The notes beneath the pieces are model-generated. The model was not told the origin of the DNA. It did no database searches and was given only the letters and a program-made list of their open reading frames with translations. The translations under genes and the position numbers were made by a program. Of a DNA stretch of 64,000 nucleotides, positions 16,384-55,723 are shown piece after piece. Source of the DNA: Gammaproteobacteria bacterium (GTDB lineage Bacteria; Pseudomonadota; Gammaproteobacteria; Steroidobacterales; PWYM01); the NCBI GenBank assembly GCA_003567855.1, contig PWYM01000237.1, positions 5,302 through 69,301 on the forward strand, read 5' to 3'. Each line of letters starts with the position of its first letter. Within the stretch, counting starts at the first letter, position 1.

Positions 16384-18633
16384 ATGACAATCCAGCCCAG
16401 CCACAGGGGTGGCCTCGTCGCCGCCGCCGTCGCCGCCGCCTTCGGTGCCAGCCTGCCCGCGGCCGCGCAGGAGACCGGCGCGCGGGCGATAGAACAGATC
16501 ACCGTCACCGCGCGGCGGGTCGAGGAAACGCTGCAGGACGTGCCGCTCGCGGTGTCGGCGTTCTCGGCCGACGACCTCGCGCGCCTGCAGGCCGACAGCC
16601 TCGATGGCCTGCAGGGCGCCGTACCGAACCTCAATCTCGTCCAGGGTCGCGGTTCGGCCTCCAGTGCGAATATTTTCATTCGCGGCATCGGCCAGCCCGA
16701 CGCCCTGCAGACCTTCGATCCGGGCGTCGGCGTCTACGTCGATGACGTCTACATCTCGCGCATCCAGGGCGCACTGTTCAACCTGCACGATGTGGAACGC
16801 GTCGAGGTGCTGCGCGGCCCACAGGGCACGCTCTACGGCAAGAACACGATCGCCGGCGCGGTGAAAATCGTCACGCGCCGGCCCACCGAGGAGACGGAGT
16901 TCGATGCCGAGGTCGGGATCGGCCGCTACAGCGCGCGCAACGGGCGCGTGTTCCTGGCCGGTGGCCTGACGGACACGCTGTTTGCGAGTTTCTCCGGACT
17001 GGTGTCGGAGCGCGACGGTACCGTTACCGACAGCGCAACCGGCGCAGAGTACAACGACATCGACACGCGCGCCGGTCGCATCGCGCTGCGCTGGGTGCCG
17101 ACCGACACGCTGGAGGCGCGGCTGTCGGTCGACGCGACGCGCGAACGCAACGCGCTCAACCTCGGGCGTGCGCGCGCGCCGCTGATCTCGGTGGATCTTG
17201 CCACGGGGGGTATCGTCCCGCGGTTCGTCCCCGAGGAGGGCTCATGGGATCGCACCGCGCGCTCGCAGCTGCCCAATGACCCCGGCCAGGAACTCGACCA
17301 CTGGGGCACGTCGCTGTCGGTAGACTGGGACATAGACGACGCGCTGACTGCAAAGTCGATCACCTCCTGGCGCAGGCTCGAGACCGACTTCTTCATCGAC
17401 ATCGACGCGACCGAGCTCGAGCTCGGCGACGTGTTCGTAGGCGTGCGCCAGGAACAGATGTCGCAGGAATTCCAGCTCGCGTGGGACGCCGGCGGGCGTT
17501 TCAACGGCGTCGCGGGCATCTACGCGCTGAAGGAACGCGTCGGTTCCGAGCAGTTTGCGTTCGCCGACGACTTCCTGCTGTTTGGCGGCATACCCCTGGA
17601 CTTCCTGCGCACCATCAACGACTTCCAGGAAACCCTGAGCTACGCGGCGTTCGGCCAGGGCACGTGGCAGCTCGACGAGCGCTGGAGCGCGACGGTGGGC
17701 CTGCGCTACACCTACGAGGAGAAGGATTACTTCCGCACCACGTCGGTGTTCTCGCAGGCGGGGCCGTTCCTCGAAAGCACCTTCGCGTTCGACATCGACG
17801 ACACCTGGAGCGCGTTCACGCCGAGCTTCACGCTCGACTACCGTGCCGCCGACGACGTGCTGCTCTATGCCACCGTCGCGCGCGGCTTCAAGAGCGGCGG
17901 GTTCAACGGCCGCGCGAATGCACCGACCGACGTCAGCGTGTTCGACCCCGAGTTCGTGTGGACCTGGGAAGCCGGCGTCAAGAGCGAGCTCGCCGACGGC
18001 CGGGTGCGCCTCAACGCCGCGGCGTTCTACAGCGACTACAAGGACTTCCAGGCGCGTGTCTCGGAAGTCGCGAATCCCGACGACCCCGTCCCCAATTTCG
18101 GCTTTCCGGTCATCAACGCCGGTGAACTCGAAATCTGGGGCGCGGAACTCGAAGCCGCGTGGGTGCCCGTCGACGGACTGACGCTGGCGACGCAGATCGG
18201 CTATCTGAATGCCGATTACAAGGAGTTCAATGCCGCCGAGGCCGGGCCCGACGGCTCCGTCGTGATCATCGACCGCTCGGGTGACGAAACCCCCTTCTCA
18301 CCCGAATGGACGATGCGCTTCGCGGGCAGCTACGCGTTCGATCTCGGTGCCAACGGTATGCTGACCGTCGGTGCTGACACCGCGTACCGCTCGAAGATGT
18401 GGCTCTCGGTGGACAACCGCGACGTGCTGACGCAGTCGGGATACTGGCTCAGCAACGCCTTCGTGACATGGTCGTCACCCGACACGCGCTGGAGCGTCAC
18501 CGGTGGACTGAAGAATCTCACCGACCGTGAATACAAGGTCGACGCCCAGGAGTTCTCCGCCGTCGGCAACATCCAGACGGCGTATTACGGAGATCCGCGC
18601 ACCTGGTCGCTGAGCCTGCGCTACCGCTACTGA
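16384..18633 (+). CDS. TonB-dependent receptor (TBDR-1)
   Basis: Signal peptide ending AAAQE, plug region (ITVTARRVEETLQDVPLAVSAF, VEVLRGPQGTLYGKNTIAGAV), a long beta-barrel, and the terminal ...LSLRYRY. Confidence 0.92.
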   Translation: MTIQPSHRGGLVAAAVAAAFGASLPAAAQETGARAIEQITVTARRVEETLQDVPLAVSAFSADDLARLQADSLDGLQGAVPNLNLVQGRGSASSANIFIRGIGQPDALQTFDPGVGVYVDDVYISRIQGALFNLHDVERVEVLRGPQGTLYGKNTIAGAVKIVTRRPTEETEFDAEVGIGRYSARNGRVFLAGGLTDTLFASFSGLVSERDGTVTDSATGAEYNDIDTRAGRIALRWVPTDTLEARLSVDATRERNALNLGRARAPLISVDLATGGIVPRFVPEEGSWDRTARSQLPNDPGQELDHWGTSLSVDWDIDDALTAKSITSWRRLETDFFIDIDATELELGDVFVGVRQEQMSQEFQLAWDAGGRFNGVAGIYALKERVGSEQFAFADDFLLFGGIPLDFLRTINDFQETLSYAAFGQGTWQLDERWSATVGLRYTYEEKDYFRTTSVFSQAGPFLESTFAFDIDDTWSAFTPSFTLDYRAADDVLLYATVARGFKSGGFNGRANAPTDVSVFDPEFVWTWEAGVKSELADGRVRLNAAAFYSDYKDFQARVSEVANPDDPVPNFGFPVINAGELEIWGAELEAAWVPVDGLTLATQIGYLNADYKEFNAAEAGPDGSVVIIDRSGDETPFSPEWTMRFAGSYAFDLGANGMLTVGADTAYRSKMWLSVDNRDVLTQSGYWLSNAFVTWSSPDTRWSVTGGLKNLTDREYKVDAQEFSAVGNIQTAYYGDPRTWSLSLRYRY

Positions 18634-29414: not shown

Positions 29415-31484
29415 TCAGAAGCCGTAACTGACGGTCACCCCGACCTGGCGCGGATCACCCCGGCGCACGTAGAGGCGGTCGGCGAAATCCGGCGGCTCCA
29501 GCCCGAAGAAGAACCCGCGTACCGCGTAAGTCTGCTGCAGCAGGTTGCGACCCCACGCCGAGACGCTCCAGCGCTCGCCTTCCCAGCCGACCCGGGCATT
29601 GACGAGGTTGTAGCTGCTCGAACGCTGGTCATGACTGTTGGAGAAATAGAACGCGTCGCGTCCGTTGACCTCGACGCGTCCGAACCAGCCACCGGCGTCA
29701 CGATACTCGAGTCCCAGCGAGTACTGGTAGTTCGGCGCGTGGGCCTGGTCACGACCTACCGGGCCGCCCGGAAACTCACGGAACTCGGTCTCCAGGAGGC
29801 CGACCGATGCCAGCAGCCGCCAGTGCGGCATGAACTGCCACGCGACGTCGGCCTCGACCCCGTAGTTGAACCCGCGCGCGGCGTTGTCGGTGAAGAACAC
29901 GAACGACAGCGGGTCGGCCGGATCGACCTGCAGTGAAGTATCGACCTGCTGGTCTCGGCGCAGCATGTAGAACGCCGCGGCATTTGCCTGCAGACGCCCG
30001 TCCAGCCAGCGACCGCGGATGCCGGTTTCGAAGTTCCACAGGTACTCGGTGTCGAACTCGCGCCGGCCCGCGGGAATGGAGAGGCCGAGGTTGAAACCGC
30101 CGGCCTTGTAGCCTCTCGACGCCGACGCGTACGCGGTGAGCGCATCGGTTGCGAACCAGCTCAGCTCCACGGCACCGCCGAGCATGCTCTCACGCGGGTC
30201 GAAATCCAGCCCCTGCGTGTCGCGGTACTGCGCCCGCCGCTGTTCGAGTCGCAGGCCGGTGGTCAGCTGCCAGCGCTCGGCGAGCGAAAAGTCCAGTTCA
30301 CCGAAGATGGCGAGATTGTCCGCGCGGTAGCGGCTGTCGAGCTCGCGGAACACCGCCTCGTTGAACAGGTCGAGGAAGACGTTGTCCTCGCGAAGGCGCA
30401 TCGCGTAGGCGCCGACGATCCAGTCGACGCGCCCGTCGGCGAACCCGGTGCCGGGCTCCGACATCAACCGCAGTTCCTGGTTCCAGGTGCGCCGCCGACG
30501 GTCCGTGCTCGAGAAGAAATCGTACGGCGCGAAGTCTCCCCAGAACGCGTCGTTGCCCCAGTCACCGTCGAAACTCACGAGAATGTCGGAGTCGGCCCAG
30601 CTCGAGATGCTGACGACGCGCACGTCACCGGGCACCCAGTTCACGCGCAGCGAGGACGCGCGCGATTCCTGCACATCGCGTCCGGGGCGGTCGGACTGCG
30701 TCGTGAAGCTGTTATCGACCGCGAAGGCGTCGTAGCCGTTGTCCAGATCCACCCACATCAGCGTCAGGTCGACCTGCAGCGTATCGTCAGGTTCGAAGCG
30801 CAGGCGGCCGCGTGTCGTCAGTTCGTCCCGGTTGTTCGTATCGCTGCGATCGAGGAACGCGTTGTACCGGAAACCGTCACTTTTCCAGCGGTGCGCCGCG
30901 ATGCGATAGCTGAACCGGTCGTCGATCGGGCCGCCGAAGGCCACCCCCGCGGCGCGGACGTTGTCACCGCCTACGGTGAGTTCGCTGTCGAACTCGAACT
31001 CATCACCCGGCGCACGGGAACGCATGTAGACGAGCCCGGCCAGCGCATTTGCGCCGTATCGCGTGCCCTGCGGCCCCCGCAGCACCTCGACCTGTTCCAT
31101 GTCGAACAGCGTCGCCACGGTACCGATGCCACTGAAGTCGACATCGTCGATGATGAAACCCACCGACGGGTTCGGCGCGCCCTCGTACTGGCTGCGCTCG
31201 CCGATGCCGCGAAGCTGCAGGAAGCGCGGCCGCGACGATTCTCCGGACCAGTTCAGGTTCGGCACCAGCATCAGCAGGTCCTCGAAATGCTGCACGCCGG
31301 CATCGGCGAGCAGACGCTCATCGAGCACGGTGATGCTGCCGGCGATACGGTCGAGGGTGTCGCTGCGGAAATCGGCGGTGACGACGATCTCCTCGAGCGG
31401 CGGGCGGTCGGCGGCGAGCGCCGGCGCGCTCGCGAGCGCGGCCGCGACGCCGAGCGTGGCGGGCTTGATGAATGCACGGGACAT
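29415..31484 (-). CDS. TonB-dependent receptor (TBDR-2), TPP-riboswitch controlled
   Basis: Signal peptide (...SAPALAAD), plug motifs (EEIVVTADF, VEVLRGPQGTRYGANALAGLV), barrel, and terminal ...VTVSYGF. It lies directly downstream of the riboswitch. Confidence 0.92.
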   Translation of the reverse strand: MSRAFIKPATLGVAAALASAPALAADRPPLEEIVVTADFRSDTLDRIAGSITVLDERLLADAGVQHFEDLLMLVPNLNWSGESSRPRFLQLRGIGERSQYEGAPNPSVGFIIDDVDFSGIGTVATLFDMEQVEVLRGPQGTRYGANALAGLVYMRSRAPGDEFEFDSELTVGGDNVRAAGVAFGGPIDDRFSYRIAAHRWKSDGFRYNAFLDRSDTNNRDELTTRGRLRFEPDDTLQVDLTLMWVDLDNGYDAFAVDNSFTTQSDRPGRDVQESRASSLRVNWVPGDVRVVSISSWADSDILVSFDGDWGNDAFWGDFAPYDFFSSTDRRRRTWNQELRLMSEPGTGFADGRVDWIVGAYAMRLREDNVFLDLFNEAVFRELDSRYRADNLAIFGELDFSLAERWQLTTGLRLEQRRAQYRDTQGLDFDPRESMLGGAVELSWFATDALTAYASASRGYKAGGFNLGLSIPAGRREFDTEYLWNFETGIRGRWLDGRLQANAAAFYMLRRDQQVDTSLQVDPADPLSFVFFTDNAARGFNYGVEADVAWQFMPHWRLLASVGLLETEFREFPGGPVGRDQAHAPNYQYSLGLEYRDAGGWFGRVEVNGRDAFYFSNSHDQRSSSYNLVNARVGWEGERWSVSAWGRNLLQQTYAVRGFFFGLEPPDFADRLYVRRGDPRQVGVTVSYGF

Positions 31485-43561: not shown

Positions 43562-43653
43562 AAGCGTTTTAGGGAGGGATGCCGCGGTCGTGCCGGGCCA
43601 GGAGGGCTCGCGGGCGGCGTGCACTGATGCCATCAAGCCGTGAGGATCGAACC

Positions 43654-46155
43654 GTGAACGAGTACGTCTACACCCGTCGTCCGTTGCGCGCCGCCGTCAG
43701 GCGCGCGTTGTTCATTTCCGGCGTGGGCGCCTGCCTGGCAGCGCCGACCTACGCACAGGCCCCCGCGCAGCAGCCGGAGACGCGCGCCGTCGACGAGATC
43801 GTCGTCACCGCCCGCCAGCGCGCAGAGCTGCTGCAGGACGTGCCCGCGTCGGTGACGGCGTTCACCGCGGCCGACATCGCCGACGCCGGCATCGACCGTG
43901 CCGAAGACTTCATCGGGCTGACCCCTGGCGTGTCGATGATCAACAGTACCGAGGCCGGTGATCTGCAGGTCAACATCCGCGGCATCAACACCTCGCGCGA
44001 TGCCGAGACCAACTTCGCTTTCATCGTCGACGGCGTACTGCTGACGAACCCGAACGCCTTCAACCAGGAATTCGCGCATATCGAGCAGATCGAGATCGTG
44101 AAGGGCCCGCAGGGCGCGCAGTACGGGCGCAACGCGTCGGCCGGCGCGATCATCGTCACCACACGCGAACCCGGCCCGGAACTCGAGGGCCGCGTGCGGG
44201 CCGGTTACGGCAACAACAACGCGTTCACCGCCAATGCCGCGTTCTCCGGCCCACTGGTCGAGGACACGATGTACGGCGGGATCAACTTCGCCTATCGCGA
44301 CAGCGACGGGCACTTCCGCAATGTGACCACCGGCAACAAGGACGTCGATGACTACAACGAGTGGTCCATCGACGGCCGCCTGATCATCGAACCCACTGAT
44401 GCGCTGAAGCTCGACTTCAAGGCGCGCTACAGTGAAATCGACAGCGGCGCGATCGGTTTCAACGCGGCGTTTGCGATCCCCGGACTGGTCGAGGGCCTGG
44501 AAGGCGTGTTCGGCCGACCGGCCACCGAAGCTTTCATCGACGTGAACGAGCACCAGTTCGTCTACCAGAACAACGTCGTGCCACAGAACGAACAGGAAAA
44601 CATCAACCTGTCGCTGAAGGCCGATTACGACCTCGGCTTCGCGATGCTCACCGGCATCGTCGCGTACAACGACCAGGAGCAGTTCTTCCTGACCGACGGC
44701 ACGAGCGCGGCGTTCGGCATCTATTTCGCAGAGCCCACGTGCCTGGCCAGCCTCGAGCAGACGGCCGCGGAGTTCGAACAGCCGCCGCCGTTTTTCAACT
44801 TCGGCAGTCCGGATGCTCAGCTCCTGCCCGCGTACTCGAACACGACCTGCGACGGTTACCAGTACCAGGTCCGCAACCAGGAGGACCTGTCGCTGGACGT
44901 ACGCCTGACCTCGATGGGTGACGGCCCGCTGCGCTGGATCGCCGGCGCGAACTTCGTCGACATCGACCGGACGGTGATCGTCTCGCAGGGTGCCGACCTC
45001 GACCAAGGCTTCCTGCTGCAGCCTTTCGTGCCGGCCGACGGCCCTAATCCCACCGACCTGCTCTACCACGACGAACTCGACAACAAGGTCTGGGCGGCAT
45101 ACGGCAGCATTGACTACGACCTGCGGGACGACCTGGAGCTGTCGCTCGCGCTGCGCTACGACCGCGAGCGTCGCAAGGTCAGCAACCGCGTGCCCACCGA
45201 CGCGGTCGCCCCGTTCATCAATCCGCTTGGGATCGACAACCCGCCGATCAATCCGGCGCTGCTGTTCGCCGACAGCATCGAAGACCGCAGCCGCACCTTC
45301 AGCCAGTGGCAACCCAAGGTCAGCGTGAGCTGGTCGGCCACCGACGAGCTGAGCCTGTACGCGACCTACGGCGTCGGCTTCCGCAGCGGCGGCTTCAACT
45401 CGCAGGGCGTGGAGGCCACGATCGAGGTGTTCTACACCGACGCTTTCGGCGCCCAGCTGTTCAACGCCCGCGACGAGTTCGAAAAGGAAGTCTCCAAGTC
45501 TTTCGAGGTCGGCTTCAAGGCCGAACTGCTTGACCGGCAGCTGCGCATTAACGGCGCCGCTTACCGCACCAAGGTCGACGACATGCAGTTCTTCAACTTC
45601 TTCGCCGGCCCGTTCGGTCTGCTGCGCGTCGTGACCAACATCGACGAGGTCGAGATCGACGGCATAGAGCTGGACTTCCGCTACAACGTCAACGACTACT
45701 TCACGCTCTATGGTGGCGCCTCCTACCTGGACGGCGAGATCAAGCGCAACACCAACCGCCCGTTCACCGTCGGCAATGACGTCCCGATGGCGCCCAACTA
45801 CACCTTCAACCTTGGCGGCCAATTCACTGTCCCTGTCACCCCCGACATGGACTTCGTCGCCCGTACCGACTGGATCGGCACCGGCAAGACCTGGTTCTCG
45901 GAGGTACAGAACAACACCGTACCGACGCTCTTCGGACTCGACGGCGACTTCTCCCGCACTCGGCGAGATGCGTTCGAGGTCGTCAACGCACGGTTCAGTC
46001 TGCAGTCCGAGAACTGGCGTGCAACGCTTTGGGCACGTAACCTGTTCGACAAGAAGTACCTGCAGGAAGTCATTCCGGCGCCGGAGTTCGGGGGCTCTTT
46101 CATCCATGACTCGCCACGCCGCAGTTACGGCATCGAACTGAGCTACATGTTCTGA
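43654..46155 (+). CDS. TonB-dependent receptor (TBDR-3)
   Basis: Signal peptide (...CLAAPTYAQA), plug (DEIVVTARQRAELLQDVPASVTAF, IEIVKGPQGAQYGRNASAGAI), barrel, and terminal ...IELSYMF. The GTG at 43654 has GAGGA 7 nt upstream; ATG at 43627 is the alternative. Confidence 0.9.
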   Translation: MNEYVYTRRPLRAAVRRALFISGVGACLAAPTYAQAPAQQPETRAVDEIVVTARQRAELLQDVPASVTAFTAADIADAGIDRAEDFIGLTPGVSMINSTEAGDLQVNIRGINTSRDAETNFAFIVDGVLLTNPNAFNQEFAHIEQIEIVKGPQGAQYGRNASAGAIIVTTREPGPELEGRVRAGYGNNNAFTANAAFSGPLVEDTMYGGINFAYRDSDGHFRNVTTGNKDVDDYNEWSIDGRLIIEPTDALKLDFKARYSEIDSGAIGFNAAFAIPGLVEGLEGVFGRPATEAFIDVNEHQFVYQNNVVPQNEQENINLSLKADYDLGFAMLTGIVAYNDQEQFFLTDGTSAAFGIYFAEPTCLASLEQTAAEFEQPPPFFNFGSPDAQLLPAYSNTTCDGYQYQVRNQEDLSLDVRLTSMGDGPLRWIAGANFVDIDRTVIVSQGADLDQGFLLQPFVPADGPNPTDLLYHDELDNKVWAAYGSIDYDLRDDLELSLALRYDRERRKVSNRVPTDAVAPFINPLGIDNPPINPALLFADSIEDRSRTFSQWQPKVSVSWSATDELSLYATYGVGFRSGGFNSQGVEATIEVFYTDAFGAQLFNARDEFEKEVSKSFEVGFKAELLDRQLRINGAAYRTKVDDMQFFNFFAGPFGLLRVVTNIDEVEIDGIELDFRYNVNDYFTLYGGASYLDGEIKRNTNRPFTVGNDVPMAPNYTFNLGGQFTVPVTPDMDFVARTDWIGTGKTWFSEVQNNTVPTLFGLDGDFSRTRRDAFEVVNARFSLQSENWRATLWARNLFDKKYLQEVIPAPEFGGSFIHDSPRRSYGIELSYMF

Positions 46156-46199
46156 CCCTGCGGCGTGCCGCGCCGCGGTACTGCAGTGCTGCCCCTGGA

Positions 46200-46230
46200 G
46201 GCCCGGACGGTACGCCGTCCGGGCCTTTTT
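46200..46230 (+). terminator. Rho-independent terminator after TBDR-3
   Basis: GGCCCGGACGG-tacg-CCGTCCGGGCC followed by TTTTT. Confidence 0.8.
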
Positions 46231-46298
46231 CATGGCCGACGTGTCACCGTACTGTCATCCGTGGTGTGCACAGTCCGCGGGCGTCGGAGGTCTTCGCC

Positions 46299-46706
46299 GT
46301 GGGGAGTCATCAGCGCTTGAAGCCAGCCCATACAGGTTTTAGGCACGTGTGGTATGCGACGGTGTACTCGCTGCGCGGGCTGCGCGCGGCGTGGACGTGG
46401 GAGTCGGCGTTCAGGCAGGAGTTCGCGCTTGCCGTGCTCGCGCTGCCACTCGGCTTCTGGCTGGGACAGACGCCGGCTGAACGCGCAGTGCTGGTCGGCT
46501 GCGTGCTACTCGTGCTCGTGGTTGAACTGCTGAACTCGGCGATCGAGGCAACCATCGACCGCATCGGGCACGACTACGATCCCGACGCCGGGCGCGCGAA
46601 GGATCTGGGTTCCGCGGCCGTGATGACCTCGCTGATGATCGCCGGACTGGTGTGGCTGATTGTGCTCTGGGACCGGCTGTTCGCTGTCGACGGCTGGTTC
46701 GCCTGA
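46299..46706 (+). CDS. dgkA: Diacylglycerol kinase
   Basis: TGFRHVWYATVYSLRGLRAAWTWESAFRQE and VELLNSAIEATIDRIGHDYDPDAGRAKDLGSAAV match the E. coli DgkA blocks. The GTG at 46299 has GGAGG 8 nt upstream. Confidence 0.88.
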   Translation: MGSHQRLKPAHTGFRHVWYATVYSLRGLRAAWTWESAFRQEFALAVLALPLGFWLGQTPAERAVLVGCVLLVLVVELLNSAIEATIDRIGHDYDPDAGRAKDLGSAAVMTSLMIAGLVWLIVLWDRLFAVDGWFA

Positions 46707-46744
46707 CCCGTGTGCCCTCCGCCCCCGCGTGAGAAGTGCCCGAA

Positions 46745-47353
46745 TCAGCCCGCAATCACTCCAATCGGCGGCATAAGCCAGAGCGCGGCACGCGCCAGCA
46801 GCCACCCGAGCACTGCGCCCGCGACTACGTCGCTCGGATAATGCAGTCCGAGGATCACCCGCGACAGCGCGACGAGCAGTGCGAACGGTACAAGCAGCGG
46901 CGCAAGCCACGGAAACCACGCCAGCGCCAGGGTCGTGAACAGCACCGCCTGCAGCGTGTGGCCGGACGGGAAGCTGTATCGGTCCAGCGGTGCGGTGGCA
47001 CACATGACGCCGACGTGGGATACGAAGGGGCGCTCACGCACGAGCGTGCCTTTCAGCAGCTTGTAGATCCCCACGCCGACCAGTGCGGTAAGCCCCATCT
47101 GCAGTGCCGCGACCCGGCCATCGGCACCTTCAAGCAGGACGAGCGCCGCCATCAGACCGTACCAGAAAATGCCGTCGCCCAAGCGGCTGACGAGCGCGAA
47201 CAGACGCTTGACCGACCGCTGTCGGGCGGCCCGGTTCAGGCACACGCAGACACCGCGCTCTGCGGCGTCGAGCCAGAGCATGCCGGGATGGGTGAAGGTG
47301 CGAAATCGCGTGTACACGCCGCGAAGTTTCTGCGCGCCGTGCGACCAATCCAT
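46745..47353 (-). CDS. PAP2-family (type 2 phosphatidic acid phosphatase-like) membrane phosphatase
   Basis: The three PAP2 motifs: KGTLVRERPF, FPSGHT, and LSRVILGLHYPSDV. An alternative start at Met25 (47281) would leave room for a promoter downstream of the Pho-like box. Confidence 0.85.
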   Translation of the reverse strand: MDWSHGAQKLRGVYTRFRTFTHPGMLWLDAAERGVCVCLNRAARQRSVKRLFALVSRLGDGIFWYGLMAALVLLEGADGRVAALQMGLTALVGVGIYKLLKGTLVRERPFVSHVGVMCATAPLDRYSFPSGHTLQAVLFTTLALAWFPWLAPLLVPFALLVALSRVILGLHYPSDVVAGAVLGWLLARAALWLMPPIGVIAG

Positions 47354-47362
47354 GACGGTTGT

Positions 47363-47380
47363 CTGACAGTCACGTGACAG
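47363..47380 (-). promoter_or_regulatory. Pho-box-like tandem direct repeat oriented toward the PAP2 gene
   Basis: The minus strand reads CTGTCAC-GTGA-CTGTCAG, a 7+4+7 layout with 11-bp phasing. The enterobacterial PhoB box is CTGTCAT-N4-CTGTCAY. It also contains the palindrome GTCACGTGAC. Confidence 0.45.
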
Positions 47381-47390
47381 CCCACCAGCC

Positions 47391-47408
47391 TCGTCATCGA
47401 TTCGTCAT
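47391..47408 (+). promoter_or_regulatory. Second Pho-box-like tandem direct repeat oriented toward the glycosyltransferase gene
   Basis: TCGTCAT-CGAT-TCGTCAT (exact 7-bp repeat, 11-bp phasing), ending 45 nt upstream of the ATG at 47453. Confidence 0.4.
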
Positions 47409-47452
47409 CGCCCCGCAAGACTCCGGTAACGCGCCCGGACGACCATCAGCGC

Positions 47453-48454
47453 ATGAAAATCGCGCTGTGTACCGATGCCTGGACTCCCCAGGTGAACGGG
47501 GTCGTCACCACGCTGTCGCGCACCTGCGAACAGCTCTCCGCTTTCGGTCACGAGGTCGAGGTCATCTCACCCGCGAGCGGTTTCAGGACTTTTCCGCTGC
47601 CGGGCTACCCGGAGATCCGGCTGCCGGTGGCTCCCGGGGGCCGCATGGGCCGTCTGCTCGACGCCTGTGCACCGGACGCGGTACACATCGCGACCGAGGG
47701 GCCGGTCGGACTCGCCGCGCGGCGCTGGTGCCTGCGCCGTCGCATGCCGTTCACGACCTCGTATCACACGCAGTTTCCGGAGTACCTGCGCCGACGCGTA
47801 CCGGTGCCGGAAGCGTTGACCTATCGTATTCTTCGCCGGTTTCACTCGCGGGCCGCGCGCGTGCTCGTCGCCACCCGGCAGATGCAGCAGCGGCTCGACG
47901 CGCACGGCTTCGAACGCCTCGTGACCTGGACGCGGGGTGTGGACACCGCGCTGTTCCGCCCCGACCCCGCTGCACCGCTCGACCTGCCCCGCCCGATCTG
48001 GGTATATGCCGGGCGCGTCGCGGTAGAGAAGGGACTGCCGGAATTCCTCGCACTGGACCTGCCGGGCAGCAAGCTCGTGATCGGCGATGGTCCCGCGCGC
48101 GCGCAGCTCCAGAGACACTACCCCGAGGCCACGTTCATCGGCTACCGGTTCGGCGAGGCGCTGGCTCAGCATCTCGCGGCGGCTGACGTGTTCGTATTTC
48201 CCAGCCGTACCGACACTTTCGGGCTCGTGATGCTCGAGGCGATGGCCTGCGGGCTGCCCGTGGCCGCCTTCCCGGTGACCGGTCCGATCGACGTCGTCGA
48301 AGACGGCGTGACCGGCGCGCTCGACCAGGACCTGCGAGCTGCCTGCGAACGCGCGCTGACACTCGACCCTGCAGCCGCGCGGCGGGCGGCGCTCGCCTGC
48401 AGCTGGGAGGTCTCGGCACGGCAGTTCGAGCGTCATCTCGAGCCGCGCGCCTGA
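47453..48454 (+). CDS. GT4-family (group 1) glycosyltransferase, SQD2/Agt-like
   Basis: N-terminus MKIALCTDAWTPQVNGVVTTL..GHEVEVI and the C-terminal donor-binding block VFVFPSRTDTFGLVMLEAMACGLPV. Confidence 0.85.
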   Translation: MKIALCTDAWTPQVNGVVTTLSRTCEQLSAFGHEVEVISPASGFRTFPLPGYPEIRLPVAPGGRMGRLLDACAPDAVHIATEGPVGLAARRWCLRRRMPFTTSYHTQFPEYLRRRVPVPEALTYRILRRFHSRAARVLVATRQMQQRLDAHGFERLVTWTRGVDTALFRPDPAAPLDLPRPIWVYAGRVAVEKGLPEFLALDLPGSKLVIGDGPARAQLQRHYPEATFIGYRFGEALAQHLAAADVFVFPSRTDTFGLVMLEAMACGLPVAAFPVTGPIDVVEDGVTGALDQDLRAACERALTLDPAAARRAALACSWEVSARQFERHLEPRA

Positions 48455-48459
48455 TTCGG

Positions 48460-48792
48460 TCAGCGTGGCTCCAGCGACTGGTCGACGACGCGCAGGATCC
48501 GGGCGATGAATGCCCGGTGCCACTCGAGACGGGCCTGCTGCACGTCGTCGGACGGTTCAAATGCGTCGAGTTCACCCTCGTCGATCAGGCCGCGCGACTC
48601 GAGCAGGCGTTGCATGCTGTCGAGGCGTTCTGCCATTACGCCCACCTCTTCGGCGACCGCGAGCGTGATCGCCAGCACCCGATCGATGTCGGGGTCATCG
48701 AAGTACACGGGCCGGGGGTCACTGCTCTCGCGCAGCGCCCGATGCACATGGGACAGGGGATCGCTGGGCTTCACTTTGTCTCGAGGCTCCAT
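48460..48792 (-). CDS. Small acidic hypothetical protein
   Basis: 110 aa, begins 12 nt downstream of the SBP gene on the same strand. The composition looks protein-like rather than shadow-like. I see no recognisable family and no clear SD. Confidence 0.45.
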   Translation of the reverse strand: MEPRDKVKPSDPLSHVHRALRESSDPRPVYFDDPDIDRVLAITLAVAEEVGVMAERLDSMQRLLESRGLIDEGELDAFEPSDDVQQARLEWHRAFIARILRVVDQSLEPR

Positions 48793-48804
48793 GCAGGAAA
48801 GGGC

Positions 48805-50334
48805 TCAGTGGGCTGCGCGGTCGACCATTTGCAGCTGCTCGTAGACCGGGACGCGGTTCGCAACGCCGAACCCGGCCACGCCATCACGGTACGCGAACAG
48901 GTCGATCTGTTCGACCAGGAACAGTGCCGGGACGCGTTCGCGTATTTCCCGGGCCAGTTCACGCAACAGCGCTGCGCGACGGTCCGGATCCATCTCGCGC
49001 TGGGCGGCCTCAAGCAGCGGCATCAGTTCGGGGTCGCAGTAGAACGGCTGGCGCTTGGCGCACGAGTAGTACTCCATCGGACGCATCACGTCGTTGTATG
49101 GCGCCGCGTTCCAGGCGAGACCGAACAGGTCGGCCCGCAGCCTACCGGCGAGATAGTCGCGCAACCACGCCGAGAACGGTCGAACCCGCAGGCGCGCCCG
49201 CACGCCGACCCGTGCGAGATCCTGCACCACGACCTGGTAGATCTGTGATGCGCCCGGTGCGCCCCCGCCTGCGACCTCGATGGACAACGTGAGGCCCTCG
49301 CCGTGTCCGGCCTCGGCGAGCAGAGCGCGCGCGGCGTCCGGATCGTGGGGAAACGGTGCAAGCTCCGGATCGTGTCCGACTGTCACCCGGGAGGCCGGCT
49401 GGCTGGAGGGCTCGACCAGGCCCTGCATCAGGATCCCGGCAATGGCCTCGCGGTTGACCGCGAGGTTCAGCGCGCGGCGCACGCGCGGGTCGGCGACCGG
49501 TGACGGTGGGTCGCGCTCGACGTTGAACGCGAGCGCCATGACCTGCATCGACGGGCTGTGTCGGACATGGAAACCGCGCGCCCGCAGAAAATCCACATCC
49601 TCGATGTCGACCATCGTCAGGTCGATCTCGCGCGATCGCAGCGCCTGGACGCGCACCGCCTGGTCGGGAAGCGCGATCACCTCCAGCCCCGAAAGCTGCG
49701 GACGCCGCCAGCCGTCATCGCGCGCGACGAGGTGTACGCGGCGGTCGGACTCGCTCCAACGCTCGAGCCGGAACGGGCCGGTACCCGATGGCGCGCGCGC
49801 GAAACCGTCCGGGCCGAGTTCGGCCCATGCCCGGGGCGGAACCATGAACACCGCCGACAGCCGTTGCGGCAGGATCGCGTCGGGTGCTTCGGTGATCACA
49901 TCCACGGTATGGGTGTCGACGACCTCCACCCGCGCGACATGGCGGACCTCGTTGCCAATCACCGTGCGCGCCCCGGCGCTCGAGCGCAGCCAGTCGAAAA
50001 CCGCGACCACCGCCTCGGCGTCGAAAGGCTCACCGTTATCGAAGTGCACGCCGGCACGCAGCTCGAAGCGCCAGCGGTCAGTATCGACGAGCGACCAGTC
50101 GGTTGCGAGCGCGGGCTGCAGGTCGCCCTGCGCGTCGAGTCGCGTCAGCGCGTCGAACATCGCCGCCCACGTGTAGCTTGACGGCGTGCCGTTCGCGCCA
50201 TAGGGGTTGCCCATCGTCGGCGGCAGGTTCGACACGCCGAAGCGCAGCGTGTCGGCCGGTGCGGCCGCGTACCAGGCGCACAGCACCAGCACCATGACGG
50301 CACGCGCCGCCAACGGACCGTGACGGCTATGCAC
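48805..50334 (-). CDS. Family-5 (Opp/Dpp/Nik-type) periplasmic solute-binding protein with no adjacent ABC permease or ATPase
   Basis: Signal-like N-terminus (AARAVMVLVLCAWYAAAPA), then LRFGVSNLPPTMGNPYG...ALATDWSLVDTDRWRFELRAGVHFDNGEPFDAEAV, typical of SBP_bac_5. The start is uncertain (GTG 50334 or ATG 50295). The track start at 50574 overlaps the upstream gene. Confidence 0.78.
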   Translation of the reverse strand: MHSRHGPLAARAVMVLVLCAWYAAAPADTLRFGVSNLPPTMGNPYGANGTPSSYTWAAMFDALTRLDAQGDLQPALATDWSLVDTDRWRFELRAGVHFDNGEPFDAEAVVAVFDWLRSSAGARTVIGNEVRHVARVEVVDTHTVDVITEAPDAILPQRLSAVFMVPPRAWAELGPDGFARAPSGTGPFRLERWSESDRRVHLVARDDGWRRPQLSGLEVIALPDQAVRVQALRSREIDLTMVDIEDVDFLRARGFHVRHSPSMQVMALAFNVERDPPSPVADPRVRRALNLAVNREAIAGILMQGLVEPSSQPASRVTVGHDPELAPFPHDPDAARALLAEAGHGEGLTLSIEVAGGGAPGASQIYQVVVQDLARVGVRARLRVRPFSAWLRDYLAGRLRADLFGLAWNAAPYNDVMRPMEYYSCAKRQPFYCDPELMPLLEAAQREMDPDRRAALLRELAREIRERVPALFLVEQIDLFAYRDGVAGFGVANRVPVYEQLQMVDRAAH

Positions 50335-53331: not shown

Positions 53332-53482
53332 CGTCCGGTGTTTCTGGCCGAGGTTCGGCCAAACCTGTGGCTGACCGGCGCGGCTGTCCGTGTATCTTGG
53401 CCGCAACATGTACGCACGCCGGTGTTCCACCACAGCGCCCGCCCAACCTGTCGAATCCGAAATCCTGGAGGGAAATCTGAGG

Positions 53483-55723
53483 ATGAAAAGCCTATACCGC
53501 ACGCCCCTCGCGCTCGCCGTCGCGGTCGCGTTGACCAGCCCGCTGGCCGCCTACGCGCAGCAGCCGGACGCCCCTGTCGCGCAGCAGCGCGCTCTGGACG
53601 AGGTGGTGGTCACCGCACAGCGGCGCCAGGAATCAGTTCAGGACATTCCGATTGCGGTTTCGGCATTCGACGCCGACCAGCTCGGCCGGCTTGGCGTCAC
53701 CGAGACGCTCGACATGACCCGGCTGGTGCCGAACTTCATCGGCAGCAGCAACACCGGACTCGGCACGGCCAACGTTTATTCGATTCGCGGCCTGAACAAC
53801 ACCGAATCCATTCCGACTTTTGACCCGCCGGTCGGCAGCTACATCGACGACATCTACGTCTCGCGCCAGAACGCGAACAACTTCACGCTGTTCGACGTCG
53901 ACCGCATCGAGGTGCTGCGCGGACCACAGGGCACGCTGTTCGGACGCAACACCACCGGTGGTGCGGTCAACGTGATCATGGCGCGGCCGTCCGAAGAGTT
54001 TGGCGGCTACGTGGAAGTCGGTTACGGCCGTTTCAACCGCAAGACCGCACGCGCGAGCGTGGACCTGCCGGTCAACGACCAGTTCCTGACCAAGATCAGC
54101 GGCTACTGGATCGAGGACGATGGCTGGCTCTACAACGAGACCACCGGCGAGACGCTCAATTTCGAGGATAACAAAGGCGTGCGGGTCGATCTGCGCTGGC
54201 TGCCCACCGACGAGATCATCTGGGATGTCGCGGTCGATTACGTAGACACGCAGAACGCCGCGATCGCCGGCACCCCCGTTGGCAGCAACTTCGTCACCCA
54301 GACGGGGCTGCGTCGCGGTGAAAACCTCAGCGACTTCGTCGATCTCACCGGCAACAAGTCGTTCATCCCGACAGGCAACCTGGTACGCGCCTGGTCCATC
54401 ACGTCACGTCTCAACATCGCGACGGCGCTCGGTGATCTCGAGCTGATCACCGGCTACCGGGACATGAACCAGAAGTACATGCTCGACTTCTTCAACAACC
54501 CCGCGCCGTTCGGTGGATTCGTCATAGCCAACGACGGCGAACACACGCAGTTCAGCCAGGAAATCAAGCTCGCCGGCAGCACCGACGACAACCGCATCGA
54601 CTACGTCGTCGGCGTGTTCTACCTCGACGAGGACAACGACACCGACTTCGCCGACGTGTTCAACCTCGGGTTCCCGGCGCTGATTTCCGACCGCACGCTC
54701 GACAACAATACCGAGACGTGGGCGGTGTACGGCCAGGCCGACTTTCACCTCAACGACGCCTGGACGGCGACCGTCGGCCTGCGCTACACCGAGGAAGAAC
54801 AGGACATACGGCTGTTCTCGAACCAGCCTAACTTCGTCGGCGCGAGTTTCGACTCGAGCGACCTGGAAGCCGTCGGCGTACCGCTCAGCGACAAGACCAC
54901 GCTGTGGACGCCGCGCGTCGCGCTTCAGTACAACATCGACGACGACACCAACGTCTACGCATCGGCGACGCGCGGGTTCAAGTCCGGCGGCTGGAACGCG
55001 CGAAACAACGACCCGCTGTTGGTGCTGCCGTTCGGACCGGAGCGCGTCTGGTCGTACGAGGCCGGCATGCGCAGCCAGTGGATGGACAACCGCGTGCGAT
55101 TCAACGCCACCGCGTTCTGGACCGACGTCAGCGACTTCCAGCTGCCCACCGCGACCACGGATGCGCAGGGCGGTATCAACTTCGTGACGCGGAACTTCGC
55201 CGACCTCGAGGTCAAGGGCCTCGAGGTCGAGCTGCTGGCGCTCGCGACCGACCGGCTCACGATCTACGCCAACCTCGGCTGGCAGGACTCCGAGTACAAG
55301 AACCTCGATCCCGCGATCCGCGACCAGCAGCAGCTGTGTCTCGAAGAGGCGCTGCAGTGCGGCGAGGGCATCATCGCACCTGACGGCAGCGTGGCCGACC
55401 CGGTGCGTGCGCCGAACTTCACCATTGCCGCCGGCGGCGACTACCGATTGCCGCTCGGGCCGCGGCTGGAGCTCGTGCCGTCGCTGTCGATCACCCGCTA
55501 CGGCACCCACTCGATCGATACCGGGAACGCTTCCTTTCCCGGCGGCGTGTCCTACACGAACGTCAACGGCGGTATCGCCCTCGAGGATGTAGACGGCACC
55601 TGGGCGGTACGCGCGAACTGCAAGAACTGCACGAGCCGCGTACAGCCCAATTCGTCGCTCGCCGGGGGGCTCTACTACAACCAGCCTCGGACCTGGACGA
55701 TAAACTTCCGCTACAACTTCTGA
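53483..55723 (+). CDS. TonB-dependent receptor (TBDR-4)
   Basis: ATG at 53483 preceded by GGAGGGAAATCTGAGG. Signal peptide (...SPLAAYAQQ), plug (DEVVVTAQRRQESVQDIPIAVSAF, IEVLRGPQGTLFGRNTTGGAV), and terminal ...INFRYNF. Confidence 0.92.
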   Translation: MKSLYRTPLALAVAVALTSPLAAYAQQPDAPVAQQRALDEVVVTAQRRQESVQDIPIAVSAFDADQLGRLGVTETLDMTRLVPNFIGSSNTGLGTANVYSIRGLNNTESIPTFDPPVGSYIDDIYVSRQNANNFTLFDVDRIEVLRGPQGTLFGRNTTGGAVNVIMARPSEEFGGYVEVGYGRFNRKTARASVDLPVNDQFLTKISGYWIEDDGWLYNETTGETLNFEDNKGVRVDLRWLPTDEIIWDVAVDYVDTQNAAIAGTPVGSNFVTQTGLRRGENLSDFVDLTGNKSFIPTGNLVRAWSITSRLNIATALGDLELITGYRDMNQKYMLDFFNNPAPFGGFVIANDGEHTQFSQEIKLAGSTDDNRIDYVVGVFYLDEDNDTDFADVFNLGFPALISDRTLDNNTETWAVYGQADFHLNDAWTATVGLRYTEEEQDIRLFSNQPNFVGASFDSSDLEAVGVPLSDKTTLWTPRVALQYNIDDDTNVYASATRGFKSGGWNARNNDPLLVLPFGPERVWSYEAGMRSQWMDNRVRFNATAFWTDVSDFQLPTATTDAQGGINFVTRNFADLEVKGLEVELLALATDRLTIYANLGWQDSEYKNLDPAIRDQQQLCLEEALQCGEGIIAPDGSVADPVRAPNFTIAAGGDYRLPLGPRLELVPSLSITRYGTHSIDTGNASFPGGVSYTNVNGGIALEDVDGTWAVRANCKNCTSRVQPNSSLAGGLYYNQPRTWTINFRYNF

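Follow-up and report, generated by a model that had tools for sequence, protein, structure and literature searches.

The exchange of phospholipids for glycolipids is a major bacterial answer to phosphate scarcity in oceans, soils and infections, and it changes antibiotic tolerance as well. The route accepted for bacteria leads from the metallophosphoesterase PlcP to the glycosyltransferase (GT) Agt, and plcP-agt operons, which carry Pho boxes, make monoglucosyldiacylglycerol (MGDG) and glucuronic acid diacylglycerol (GADG) under phosphate stress (PMC4796936, PMC8528852, PMC9239053). A link between DgkA, a kinase of diacylglycerol (DAG), and Agt is already published for Burkholderia: in Burkholderia cenocepacia, the plcP-agt-dagK operon (BCAL2364-2366) is induced by depletion of inorganic phosphate (Pi), and all three of its proteins are up (10.1101/2023.05.30.542800). 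Cyanobacteria, which are without PlcP, were suggested to obtain DAG via phosphatidate phosphatases, a proposal made for cyanobacteria only (Sebastian et al., PMC4796936); for proteobacteria, our literature search found no paper in which a PAP2 enzyme is connected with PlcP-Agt or PhoB. Here, we analyse a locus in which genes for an Agt-like GT of family 4 (GT4), a PAP2 phosphatase and DgkA lie side by side, next to Pho-box-like repeats. The locus is located in a 64-kb stretch of gammaproteobacterial contig PWYM01000237.1, and this whole stretch is referred to below as the window.

We consider it rather probable that the locus is a PhoB-controlled membrane-lipid renovation module composed of three genes, each with a promoter of its own. 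Of its components, Agt and DgkA are already known; what appears to be new is a small PAP2 subfamily that is linked to agt and is preceded, also where it has no agt as a neighbour, by candidate Pho boxes whose distance is conserved, together with a symmetric pair of promoters predicted to be leaderless. The gene calls, coordinates and repeats of a preliminary description of this DNA were checked by direct reading of the window sequence, and every feature was found where it had been placed (Table 1). For comparison, 80 loci with homologous GT genes, designated by L-numbers, were used; their flanks extend at most ca. 6 kb and are shorter where a contig ends. The nearest relatives of the source organism are Moraxellaceae/Amnimonas, Steroidobacteraceae and Aquisalimonadaceae metagenome-assembled genomes (ca. 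65-75% identity).

Homologues of the window GT are widespread in Gamma-, Alpha- and Betaproteobacteria, and those of the 80 loci are 52-69% identical to it over the full length. In 56 of these loci, the GT gene is located directly downstream (median distance ca. 6 bp) of a co-directional gene coding for an LpxH-like metallophosphoesterase of ca. 270 residues. The latter scores 35-52 bits against LpxH equivalog cut-offs of 134 and 190, i.e., far too low for LpxH, and therefore fits PlcP. GTs with and without plcP interleave in their identity to the window protein, and the genes found near the GT in other loci include phoB (7 loci), pstS (7) and phnC-like genes (9). JGI names homologues at 64-66% identity '1,2-diacylglycerol 3-alpha-glucosyltransferase/glucuronosyltransferase', and the window protein is 54-56% identical to the agt products of Burkholderia-type plcP-agt-dgkA operons (L057 and L068; 54% for L068). 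Through the plcP linkage and the names of its homologues, we file the window GT4 as a predicted diacylglycerol glycosyltransferase of the Agt family; its domains agree with this, and the earlier designation as an Agt-type glycolipid synthase was thus borne out. There is no plcP adjacent to agt in the window, and a tblastn search with PlcP at E 1e-3 produced no match across the 64 kb.

Two further proteins recur around agt in other genomes. A second GT4 paralogue (ca. 390 residues, 30-34% identical to Agt) is encoded in L017 (7286-8245, minus strand), L024 (2030-3148, minus) and L025 (2615-3800, minus). In L017 and L024 its gene comes after PAP2 in the same orientation, in L025 it comes after plcP, and the protein may be another glycolipid synthase with a different sugar specificity. 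A membrane protein of ca. 200 residues without a Pfam match, whose family is present in nine loci overall, is encoded divergently from agt in seven loci with no plcP nearby (L010, L012, L015 (5212-5814, minus), L021, L031, L050 and L079). Pho-box-like sites are found 42-44 nt before agt in L012, L015, L021 and L079, and the membrane protein may be a further partner of Agt.

The PAP2 motifs KX6RP (KGTLVRERP), PSGH and SRX5HX3D (SRVILGLHYPSD) are all invariant in 20 homologues of the window phosphatase, and an AlphaFold2 model (pLDDT 87.7) has an all-helical membrane fold. The structures closest to the model in a Foldseek search were Aquifex aeolicus LpxE (6EBU; TM-scores 0.75/0.81) and Bacillus subtilis PgpB (5JKI; E 7e-5), and the similarity to LpxE was also detected in sequence (phmmer E 1.5e-5; profile search E 9e-14). 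The three invariant motifs and the LpxE/PgpB-like modelled fold indicate that PAP2 is catalytically competent. Since these structural relatives are promiscuous enzymes with active sites facing the periplasm, the substrate of PAP2 is not fixed by the fold.

In 18 of the 80 loci, agt has a PAP2 orthologue (>50% identity) no more than 6 kb away, in divergent, convergent or co-directional orientation. Co-directional genes, which we read as co-transcribed, precede the second GT4 gene in L017 and L024 and follow agt in L034. The neighbour of PAP2 is dgkA in the window and in L018, L025 and L034, and the gene order of L025, dgkA-> <-PAP2 agt->, is that of the window, so that the three genes do recur together in other genomes. 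Seen from the PAP2 side, divergent GT4-PAP2 pairs are also present in Alkalispirillum mobile and Amnimonas aquatica. Two orthologues have no agt nearby: that of L083 is preceded by a strong Pho box, and that of L084 lies beside a gene for a phosphate-selective porin. A two-component system in L084 was considered as PhoBR, which is not supported, its regulator being only 35% identical to PhoB. In these gene neighbourhoods, the association with two GT4 paralogues and with DAG kinases of two kinds points to DAG and phosphatidate (PA) as the common metabolites.

The window dgkA product matches the Escherichia coli DgkA structures 3ZE4 and 3ZE5 over the full length (E 5e-32; aligned residues 4-126 for 3ZE4). 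About 10 loci, among them those with the Burkholderia plcP-agt-dgkA arrangement, have a dgkA gene in the vicinity of agt. In a set of 12 loci, mostly from Alphaproteobacteria (L022, L027, L035, L040, L044, L049, L051, L053, L058, L059, L062 and L067), an unrelated kinase of the DAGK_cat/YegS type (PF00781 and PF19279) is encoded on the minus strand ca. 1 kb upstream of agt, divergently from plcP-agt; gamma- and betaproteobacterial loci carry DgkA instead; the module has recruited DAG kinases of two unrelated kinds. In the closest relative of the window, L085 (identity 91% for PAP2, 95% for Agt and 97% for the upstream TonB-dependent receptor), dgkA is cleanly deleted (L085 1554-1789, equivalent to window 46156-46744), with ca. 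13 first and ca. 4 last codons left. The promoter of the deleted gene persists there, with a Pho-box-like site CTGTCAC-CGGA-CTGCAAT.

Pho-box-like repeats precede all three genes. Two of them, boxes 1 and 2, are the repeats of the preliminary description and read towards PAP2 and agt, respectively; a third one, upstream of dgkA, had been missed. It begins 11 nt past the T-run of a terminator, and 41 nt separate its end from the dgkA GTG. In box 1, the phasing continues with a third half-site, CCGTCAT, that overlaps ATG 47353. The repeats are CTGTCAT-like 7-bp direct repeats separated by 4 bp (12 of 14 positions each in box 1 and the dgkA box, 10 of 14 in box 2) and agree with the published PhoB consensus CTGTCATNNNNCTGTCAT (PMC8528852). 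The pattern CTGTCA-N5-CTGTCA, with up to one mismatch, has three matches in the 64 kb, all in this locus, while 0.18 are expected and none of 100 shuffled sequences reached three. A position weight matrix was built from 25 sites in orthologous promoters of other genomes and seeded with the E. coli/Pseudomonas consensus, which makes it partly circular. In a scan of the whole window, sites of the locus occupied ranks one to four: the PAP2 side twice, at 19.7 and 19.7 bits, the dgkA site at 17.2 bits, and agt-side box 2 at 12.8 bits, with shuffle maxima of 11.7-17.9 bits. Box 2 thus falls within the shuffle range and is not beyond chance alone; exact 7-mer repeats at an 11-nt offset gave the same picture (four sites in the window versus ca. 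eight matching positions expected in shuffles), and the significance of box 2 by itself was rejected. Its weight comes from its position, orientation and conservation in relatives. None of the top 25 matrix matches in the window was a Pho box in front of the upstream TonB-dependent receptor gene. The Agt coding motif GVVTTL creates an intragenic look-alike (window 47502-47519, plus strand, 10.7 bits; L034 6050-6067, 18.6 bits), which is a false-positive trap for matrix scans.

When 209-nt promoter segments were searched with up to two mismatches, sites were present in 11 of the 44 promoters of plcP-agt operons and in 6 of the 15 promoters of PAP2 genes, against a background of 0.97%, counts that overstate significance because the loci are not phylogenetically independent. 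L085 has CTGTCAC ATGA ATGTCAG ACAA TCGTCAC on the PAP2 side, a layout repeated in L082 and L083, and CCGTCAT CGAT TCGTCAT CACC CCGCAAG ACTC CGGTAAC on the agt side. In L086, whose Agt is 76% identical, the agt upstream sequence GCGTCAT GCGG CTGTCAT GATC CCGCAAG GGTC TGGTAAC is built like that of the window, except that its second half-site is canonical, and the A. mobile intergenic region contains a perfect CTGTCATACCGCTGTCAC. The box of the agt-less orthologue L083 scores 17.5 bits, starts 62 nt and ends 45 nt before its ATG. The palindrome GTCACGTGAC within box 1, on which the preliminary description had based the alternative of a dimeric non-PhoB regulator, is absent from all other orthologous regions compared. 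In L085, all TGTCA half-sites are retained on both sides while the change of the spacer from GTGA to ATGA breaks the palindrome (GTCACATGAA), which argues against a regulator that binds it; that alternative is disfavoured. The L085 and L086 comparison favours a direct-repeat-binding regulator of the PhoB type, whose binding is predicted. With a match to the published consensus, enrichment in orthologous promoters and a conserved position, the earlier reading of the repeats as candidate PhoB boxes was upheld.

An element C(C/G)GCAAG-N4-(C/T)GGTAAC, which corresponds to the third and fourth phased heptamers (window 47413-47430), is conserved across genera. It was seen in the agt promoters of L039/L077, L085 and L086 and in the PAP2 promoter of L081, and is much better conserved than degenerate PhoB half-sites would be.

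Alignment of agt upstream regions on the start codon revealed one common layout in nine loci from about six lineages (the window, L085, L086, L001, L004, L039, L077, L081 and L082): four heptamers with 11-bp phasing, 10 bp, nAnnnT, 6-7 nt and ATG, without a Shine-Dalgarno sequence. A hexamer nAnnnT located 6 or 7 nt before the start was found for 13 of 33 stand-alone agt genes, versus 6.8% in the background and, for agt genes within plcP operons, 4 of 39. The PAP2 promoters of the window, L085, L082 and L083 share the same order of heptamers, N10, nAnnnT, N6/7 and start. For L082 and L083, the PAP2 start annotated in the source record is exactly at +62, and the window counterpart of this position is GTG 47317, which is probably the PAP2 start. 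ATG 47353 was rejected, since it is ACG in L085 and has box 1 as close as 9 nt upstream; most of the called homologues have 175-200 residues, which excludes the 202-residue frame. The earlier caveat about this ATG therefore stood, while the start proposed in its place, Met25 (47281), is less preferred than GTG 47317 in view of the +62 geometry. Because one geometry is common to both divergent promoters, we infer leaderless messages: the layout suggests that agt and PAP2 are transcribed from two back-to-back PhoB-dependent promoters giving leaderless or near-leaderless mRNAs. The dgkA promoter differs in having a single box, the -10-like hexamer CACAGT and a GGAGG Shine-Dalgarno sequence. A scan of positions 46100-48900 for sigma-70 promoters (-35/-10 pairs) and terminators listed nothing.

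Table 1. Genes and candidate regulatory elements of the locus, in window coordinates
Feature	Position	Strand	Details
Intrinsic terminator of the upstream TonB-dependent receptor gene	46200-46230	+	11-bp G+C stem, 4-nt loop, five-U run
dgkA Pho-box-like site	46241-46258	+	GTGTCAC-CGTA-CTGTCAT (GTGTCACCGTACTGTCA(T)); one mismatch to consensus
dgkA -10-like hexamer	46269-46274	+	CACAGT; 10 bp after box; putative, read from sequence
dgkA Shine-Dalgarno sequence	8 nt before GTG	+	GGAGG; putative, read from sequence
dgkA	46299-46706	+	135 aa, GTG start; PF01219, E 1e-35; convergent with PAP2
PAP2 open reading frame (ORF)	46745-47353	-	202 aa as open frame; PF01569, E 2e-22
PAP2 gene, probable extent	46745-47317	-	GTG 47317, 190 aa; alternative ATG 47281 (Met25), 178 aa
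PAP2 -10-like hexamer	47325-47330	-	GAAACT; 10 bp past fourth heptamer, 7 nt before GTG 47317
PAP2-side candidate PhoB site	47341-47380	-	Four heptamers, 11-bp phasing: CTGTCAC GTGA CTGTCAG ACAA CCGTCAT GGAT TGGTCGC
Box 1	47380->47363	-	CTGTCAC-GTGA-CTGTCAG; first two heptamers of PAP2-side site
Palindrome	47369-47378		GTCACGTGAC; perfect, 10 bp, inside box 1
agt-side candidate PhoB site	47391-47430	+	Four phased heptamers: TCGTCAT CGAT TCGTCAT CGCC CCGCAAG ACTC CGGTAAC
Box 2	47391-47408	+	TCGTCAT-CGAT-TCGTCAT; first two heptamers of agt-side site
agt -10-like hexamer	47441-47446	+	GACCAT; 10 bp past fourth heptamer, 6 nt before agt ATG; no Shine-Dalgarno sequence
agt (GT4, GT-B)	47453-48454	+	333 aa; PF13439, PF00534 and PF13692 all above cut-offs; separated from PAP2 ORF by a 99-bp gap

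The proposed renovation module would operate as follows. Upon phosphate limitation, phosphorylated PhoB would bind the 11-bp phased arrays of CTGTCA-type heptamers, standing in for -35 elements, and activate agt, the PAP2 gene and dgkA, with the back-to-back agt and PAP2 promoters starting transcription at or next to the start codon. Agt, at the cytoplasmic face of the inner membrane, would transfer glucose or glucuronate from a UDP-sugar to DAG and yield phosphorus-free MGDG or GADG. PAP2, whose fold is that of enzymes with periplasmic active sites (LpxE and PgpB), would dephosphorylate a lipid phosphomonoester, the likeliest substrates being PA or lysophosphatidate; this would free Pi for re-uptake and supply DAG to Agt. 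DgkA would re-phosphorylate surplus DAG and so buffer the DAG/PA pool.

A different role of PAP2 is possible, if unlikely: it could be a Pho-induced, LpxE-like envelope dephosphorylase, co-regulated with agt without feeding Agt. As a lipid A 1-phosphatase and/or a phosphatase of undecaprenyl pyrophosphate (C55-PP) and phosphatidylglycerol phosphate (PGP), it would strip phosphate from lipopolysaccharide or carrier lipids to spare or salvage phosphorus. The best match of PAP2 in both sequence and fold, and its best solved relative, is the lipid A 1-phosphatase LpxE of A. aeolicus, which acts on C55-PP and PGP as well. In addition, JGI names PAP2 homologues undecaprenyl-diphosphatase, orthologues L083 and L084 do without agt, and an own Pho box is compatible with any phosphorus-sparing role. 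NCBIfam equivalogs for SepP, PgpB and YbjG-type undecaprenyl-diphosphatase were also matched, but with scores far under the cut-offs (best, 58 bits versus 250; others, 39-41 versus 229-261). Recurrent adjacency to, or co-transcription with, genes of two cytoplasmic GT4 paralogues (L017, L024 and L034) likewise speaks against this alternative, as does adjacency to the DAG kinase gene in four loci, the window included; both would be hard to explain unless DAG/PA is shared.

The second alternative concerns the relation of PAP2 to PlcP. In its strong version, which we regard as unlikely, PAP2 replaces PlcP as the sole supplier of DAG for Agt, and glycolipid is made from PA synthesised de novo, as in cyanobacteria and plastids. 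The window has no PlcP-like gene, and no plcP is present within the flanks of eight PAP2-agt loci (the window, L001, L004, L006, L034, L038, L081 and L082), the nearest relatives of the window among them; a phosphatidate-phosphatase route to DAG has, moreover, been suggested for PlcP-less cyanobacteria (PMC4796936). Absence from 64 kb or from a flank of up to ca. 6 kb, however, says nothing on the remaining genome, and a PlcP-like gene is found within 6 kb in 13 of the 18 GT loci bearing PAP2. L025 has a triad identical to that of the window plus a plcP-GT4 pair; a homology search with its PlcP, directed at Alkalispirillum and Amnimonas, returned at least 120 matches, and those listed had identities of 66% or more and were for the most part metagenome proteins without a name. 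The presence of PlcP beside PAP2 in 13 of 18 loci makes PAP2 look more like a companion than a substitute, and the idea of the preliminary description that PAP2 provides an alternative route in place of PlcP is not shown by these data. The most economical reading is that PAP2 is an added arm of the PlcP-Agt pathway, serving DAG supply (PA to DAG) and Pi salvage. It is doubtful, in our estimate, that this unrecognised small PAP2 subfamily is a core PhoB-controlled member of phosphorus-stress lipid renovation which, in the window organism, Alkalispirillum and Amnimonas, is the only DAG source of Agt and makes PlcP dispensable. If true, heterotrophic Gammaproteobacteria would possess a plant- or cyanobacterium-like route from phosphatidate to the glycolipid precursor.

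Very improbable is a third alternative, that the repeats are not PhoB sites and respond to a non-phosphate signal through a dimeric regulator on GTCACGTGAC or another OmpR-family protein (PmrA/PhoP-type) on the direct repeats: box 1 does contain the perfect palindrome, lipid A phosphatases of the PAP2 type are frequently PmrA- or PhoP-controlled in other bacteria, and the L084 PAP2 gene adjoins the OmpR-family pair with the PhoB-unlike regulator, but the palindrome is broken or absent in relatives, the half-site CTGTCA(C/T) is the PhoB consensus and not that of PmrA or PhoP, and the same motif precedes plcP-agt operons that are experimentally Pi-regulated in several species.

Besides the kinship with LpxE, the JGI name, the partial circularity of the matrix, the chance-level score of box 2 and the shared ancestry of the loci, several points weigh against a PhoB-controlled renovation module. 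A phosphatase of PA cannot attack phosphatidylethanolamine or phosphatidylglycerol without phospholipase D, and PA is a minor lipid; the cluster contains no phospholipase D gene, which leaves PAP2 on its own unable to recycle phospholipid in bulk. With PAP2 facing the periplasm and DgkA the cytoplasm, the two would run a futile cycle if neither space nor time kept them apart. The deletion of dgkA in L085 means that it is dispensable for the PAP2-agt pair. No plcP, phoB or pstS was found in the 64-kb window. The -10 hexamers are weak, and GTG is unusual as the start of a leaderless mRNA. Finally, the spacers GTGA, CGAT and CGTA are not A/T-rich as in E. coli; those of orthologous sites in these GC-rich genomes vary too.

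The genes on either side of the locus are unrelated to it: a TonB-dependent receptor gene upstream, and a 110-residue ORF and a gene for a family-5 solute-binding protein downstream. There is no further phosphate-related gene among the annotated flanking ORFs of the window. The terminator of the receptor gene was identified by folding (free energy -32.6 kcal/mol, z -4.9) and was not reported by the consensus terminator scan; it is strong and insulates dgkA from the receptor gene. The 110-residue ORF (48460-48792, minus strand), convergent with agt, has no Pfam or NCBIfam match and occurs at the same position in L086 (68% identity). The window contains four TonB-dependent receptor genes (16384-18633, plus; 29415-31484, minus; 43579-46155, plus; 53390-55723, plus), and no high-scoring Pho-box-like site was seen upstream of any of them.

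The conserved association of a Pho-box PAP2 gene with agt, a second GT4 gene and DAG kinase genes points to an extra step in lipid renovation, either a second DAG source or phosphorus salvage, which would escape current models and plcP-based marker-gene surveys. The locus also offers a compact, testable architecture, with two back-to-back candidate PhoB arrays apparently driving leaderless transcripts.

Compared with the PlcP-Agt pathway, whose members include Sinorhizobium meliloti, Agrobacterium Agt, SAR11 HTCC7211, Phaeobacter MED193, Pseudomonas aeruginosa PA3219/PA3218/PA0842 and Methylosinus OB3b, the window locus has a GT4 of the same family, promoter Pho boxes of the published consensus and, as the expected products from DAG under phosphorus stress, MGDG/GADG. 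Unlike that pathway, it has no plcP near agt; agt is monocistronic, with an apparently leaderless promoter, and is accompanied by a divergent PAP2 gene with Pho boxes of its own, which is not mentioned in the literature searched. With B. cenocepacia plcP-agt-dagK, whose operon is also seen in L057 and L068, it shares the linkage of a DAG kinase to agt. In contrast to that operon, the window dgkA forms a unit of its own, equipped with a Pho-box-like site and a Shine-Dalgarno sequence; it is convergent with PAP2, which separates it from agt, and has been lost from the closest relative. PAP2 itself, at 178-190 residues, resembles the small phosphatases of the LpxE/PgpB type (A. aeolicus LpxE, 6EBU; B. 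subtilis PgpB/YodM, 5JKI; E. coli PgpB; 180-203 residues) in its three catalytic motifs and membrane fold. Its identity to them is only 23-26%, its scores are below the curated equivalog cut-offs for SepP, PgpB and undecaprenyl-diphosphatase, and it appears to form a gammaproteobacterial subfamily of its own, defined by agt linkage and Pho boxes. The cyanobacterial and plastid route, in which a PAP2-type lipid phosphate phosphatase provides DAG for a glycolipid synthase without PlcP (Nakamura et al. 2007, as cited in PMC4796936), is similar in principle. However, whereas that route serves constitutive de novo synthesis in phototrophs, PAP2 of the present locus belongs to a heterotrophic gammaproteobacterium, is predicted to be induced by PhoB, and mostly occurs alongside PlcP.

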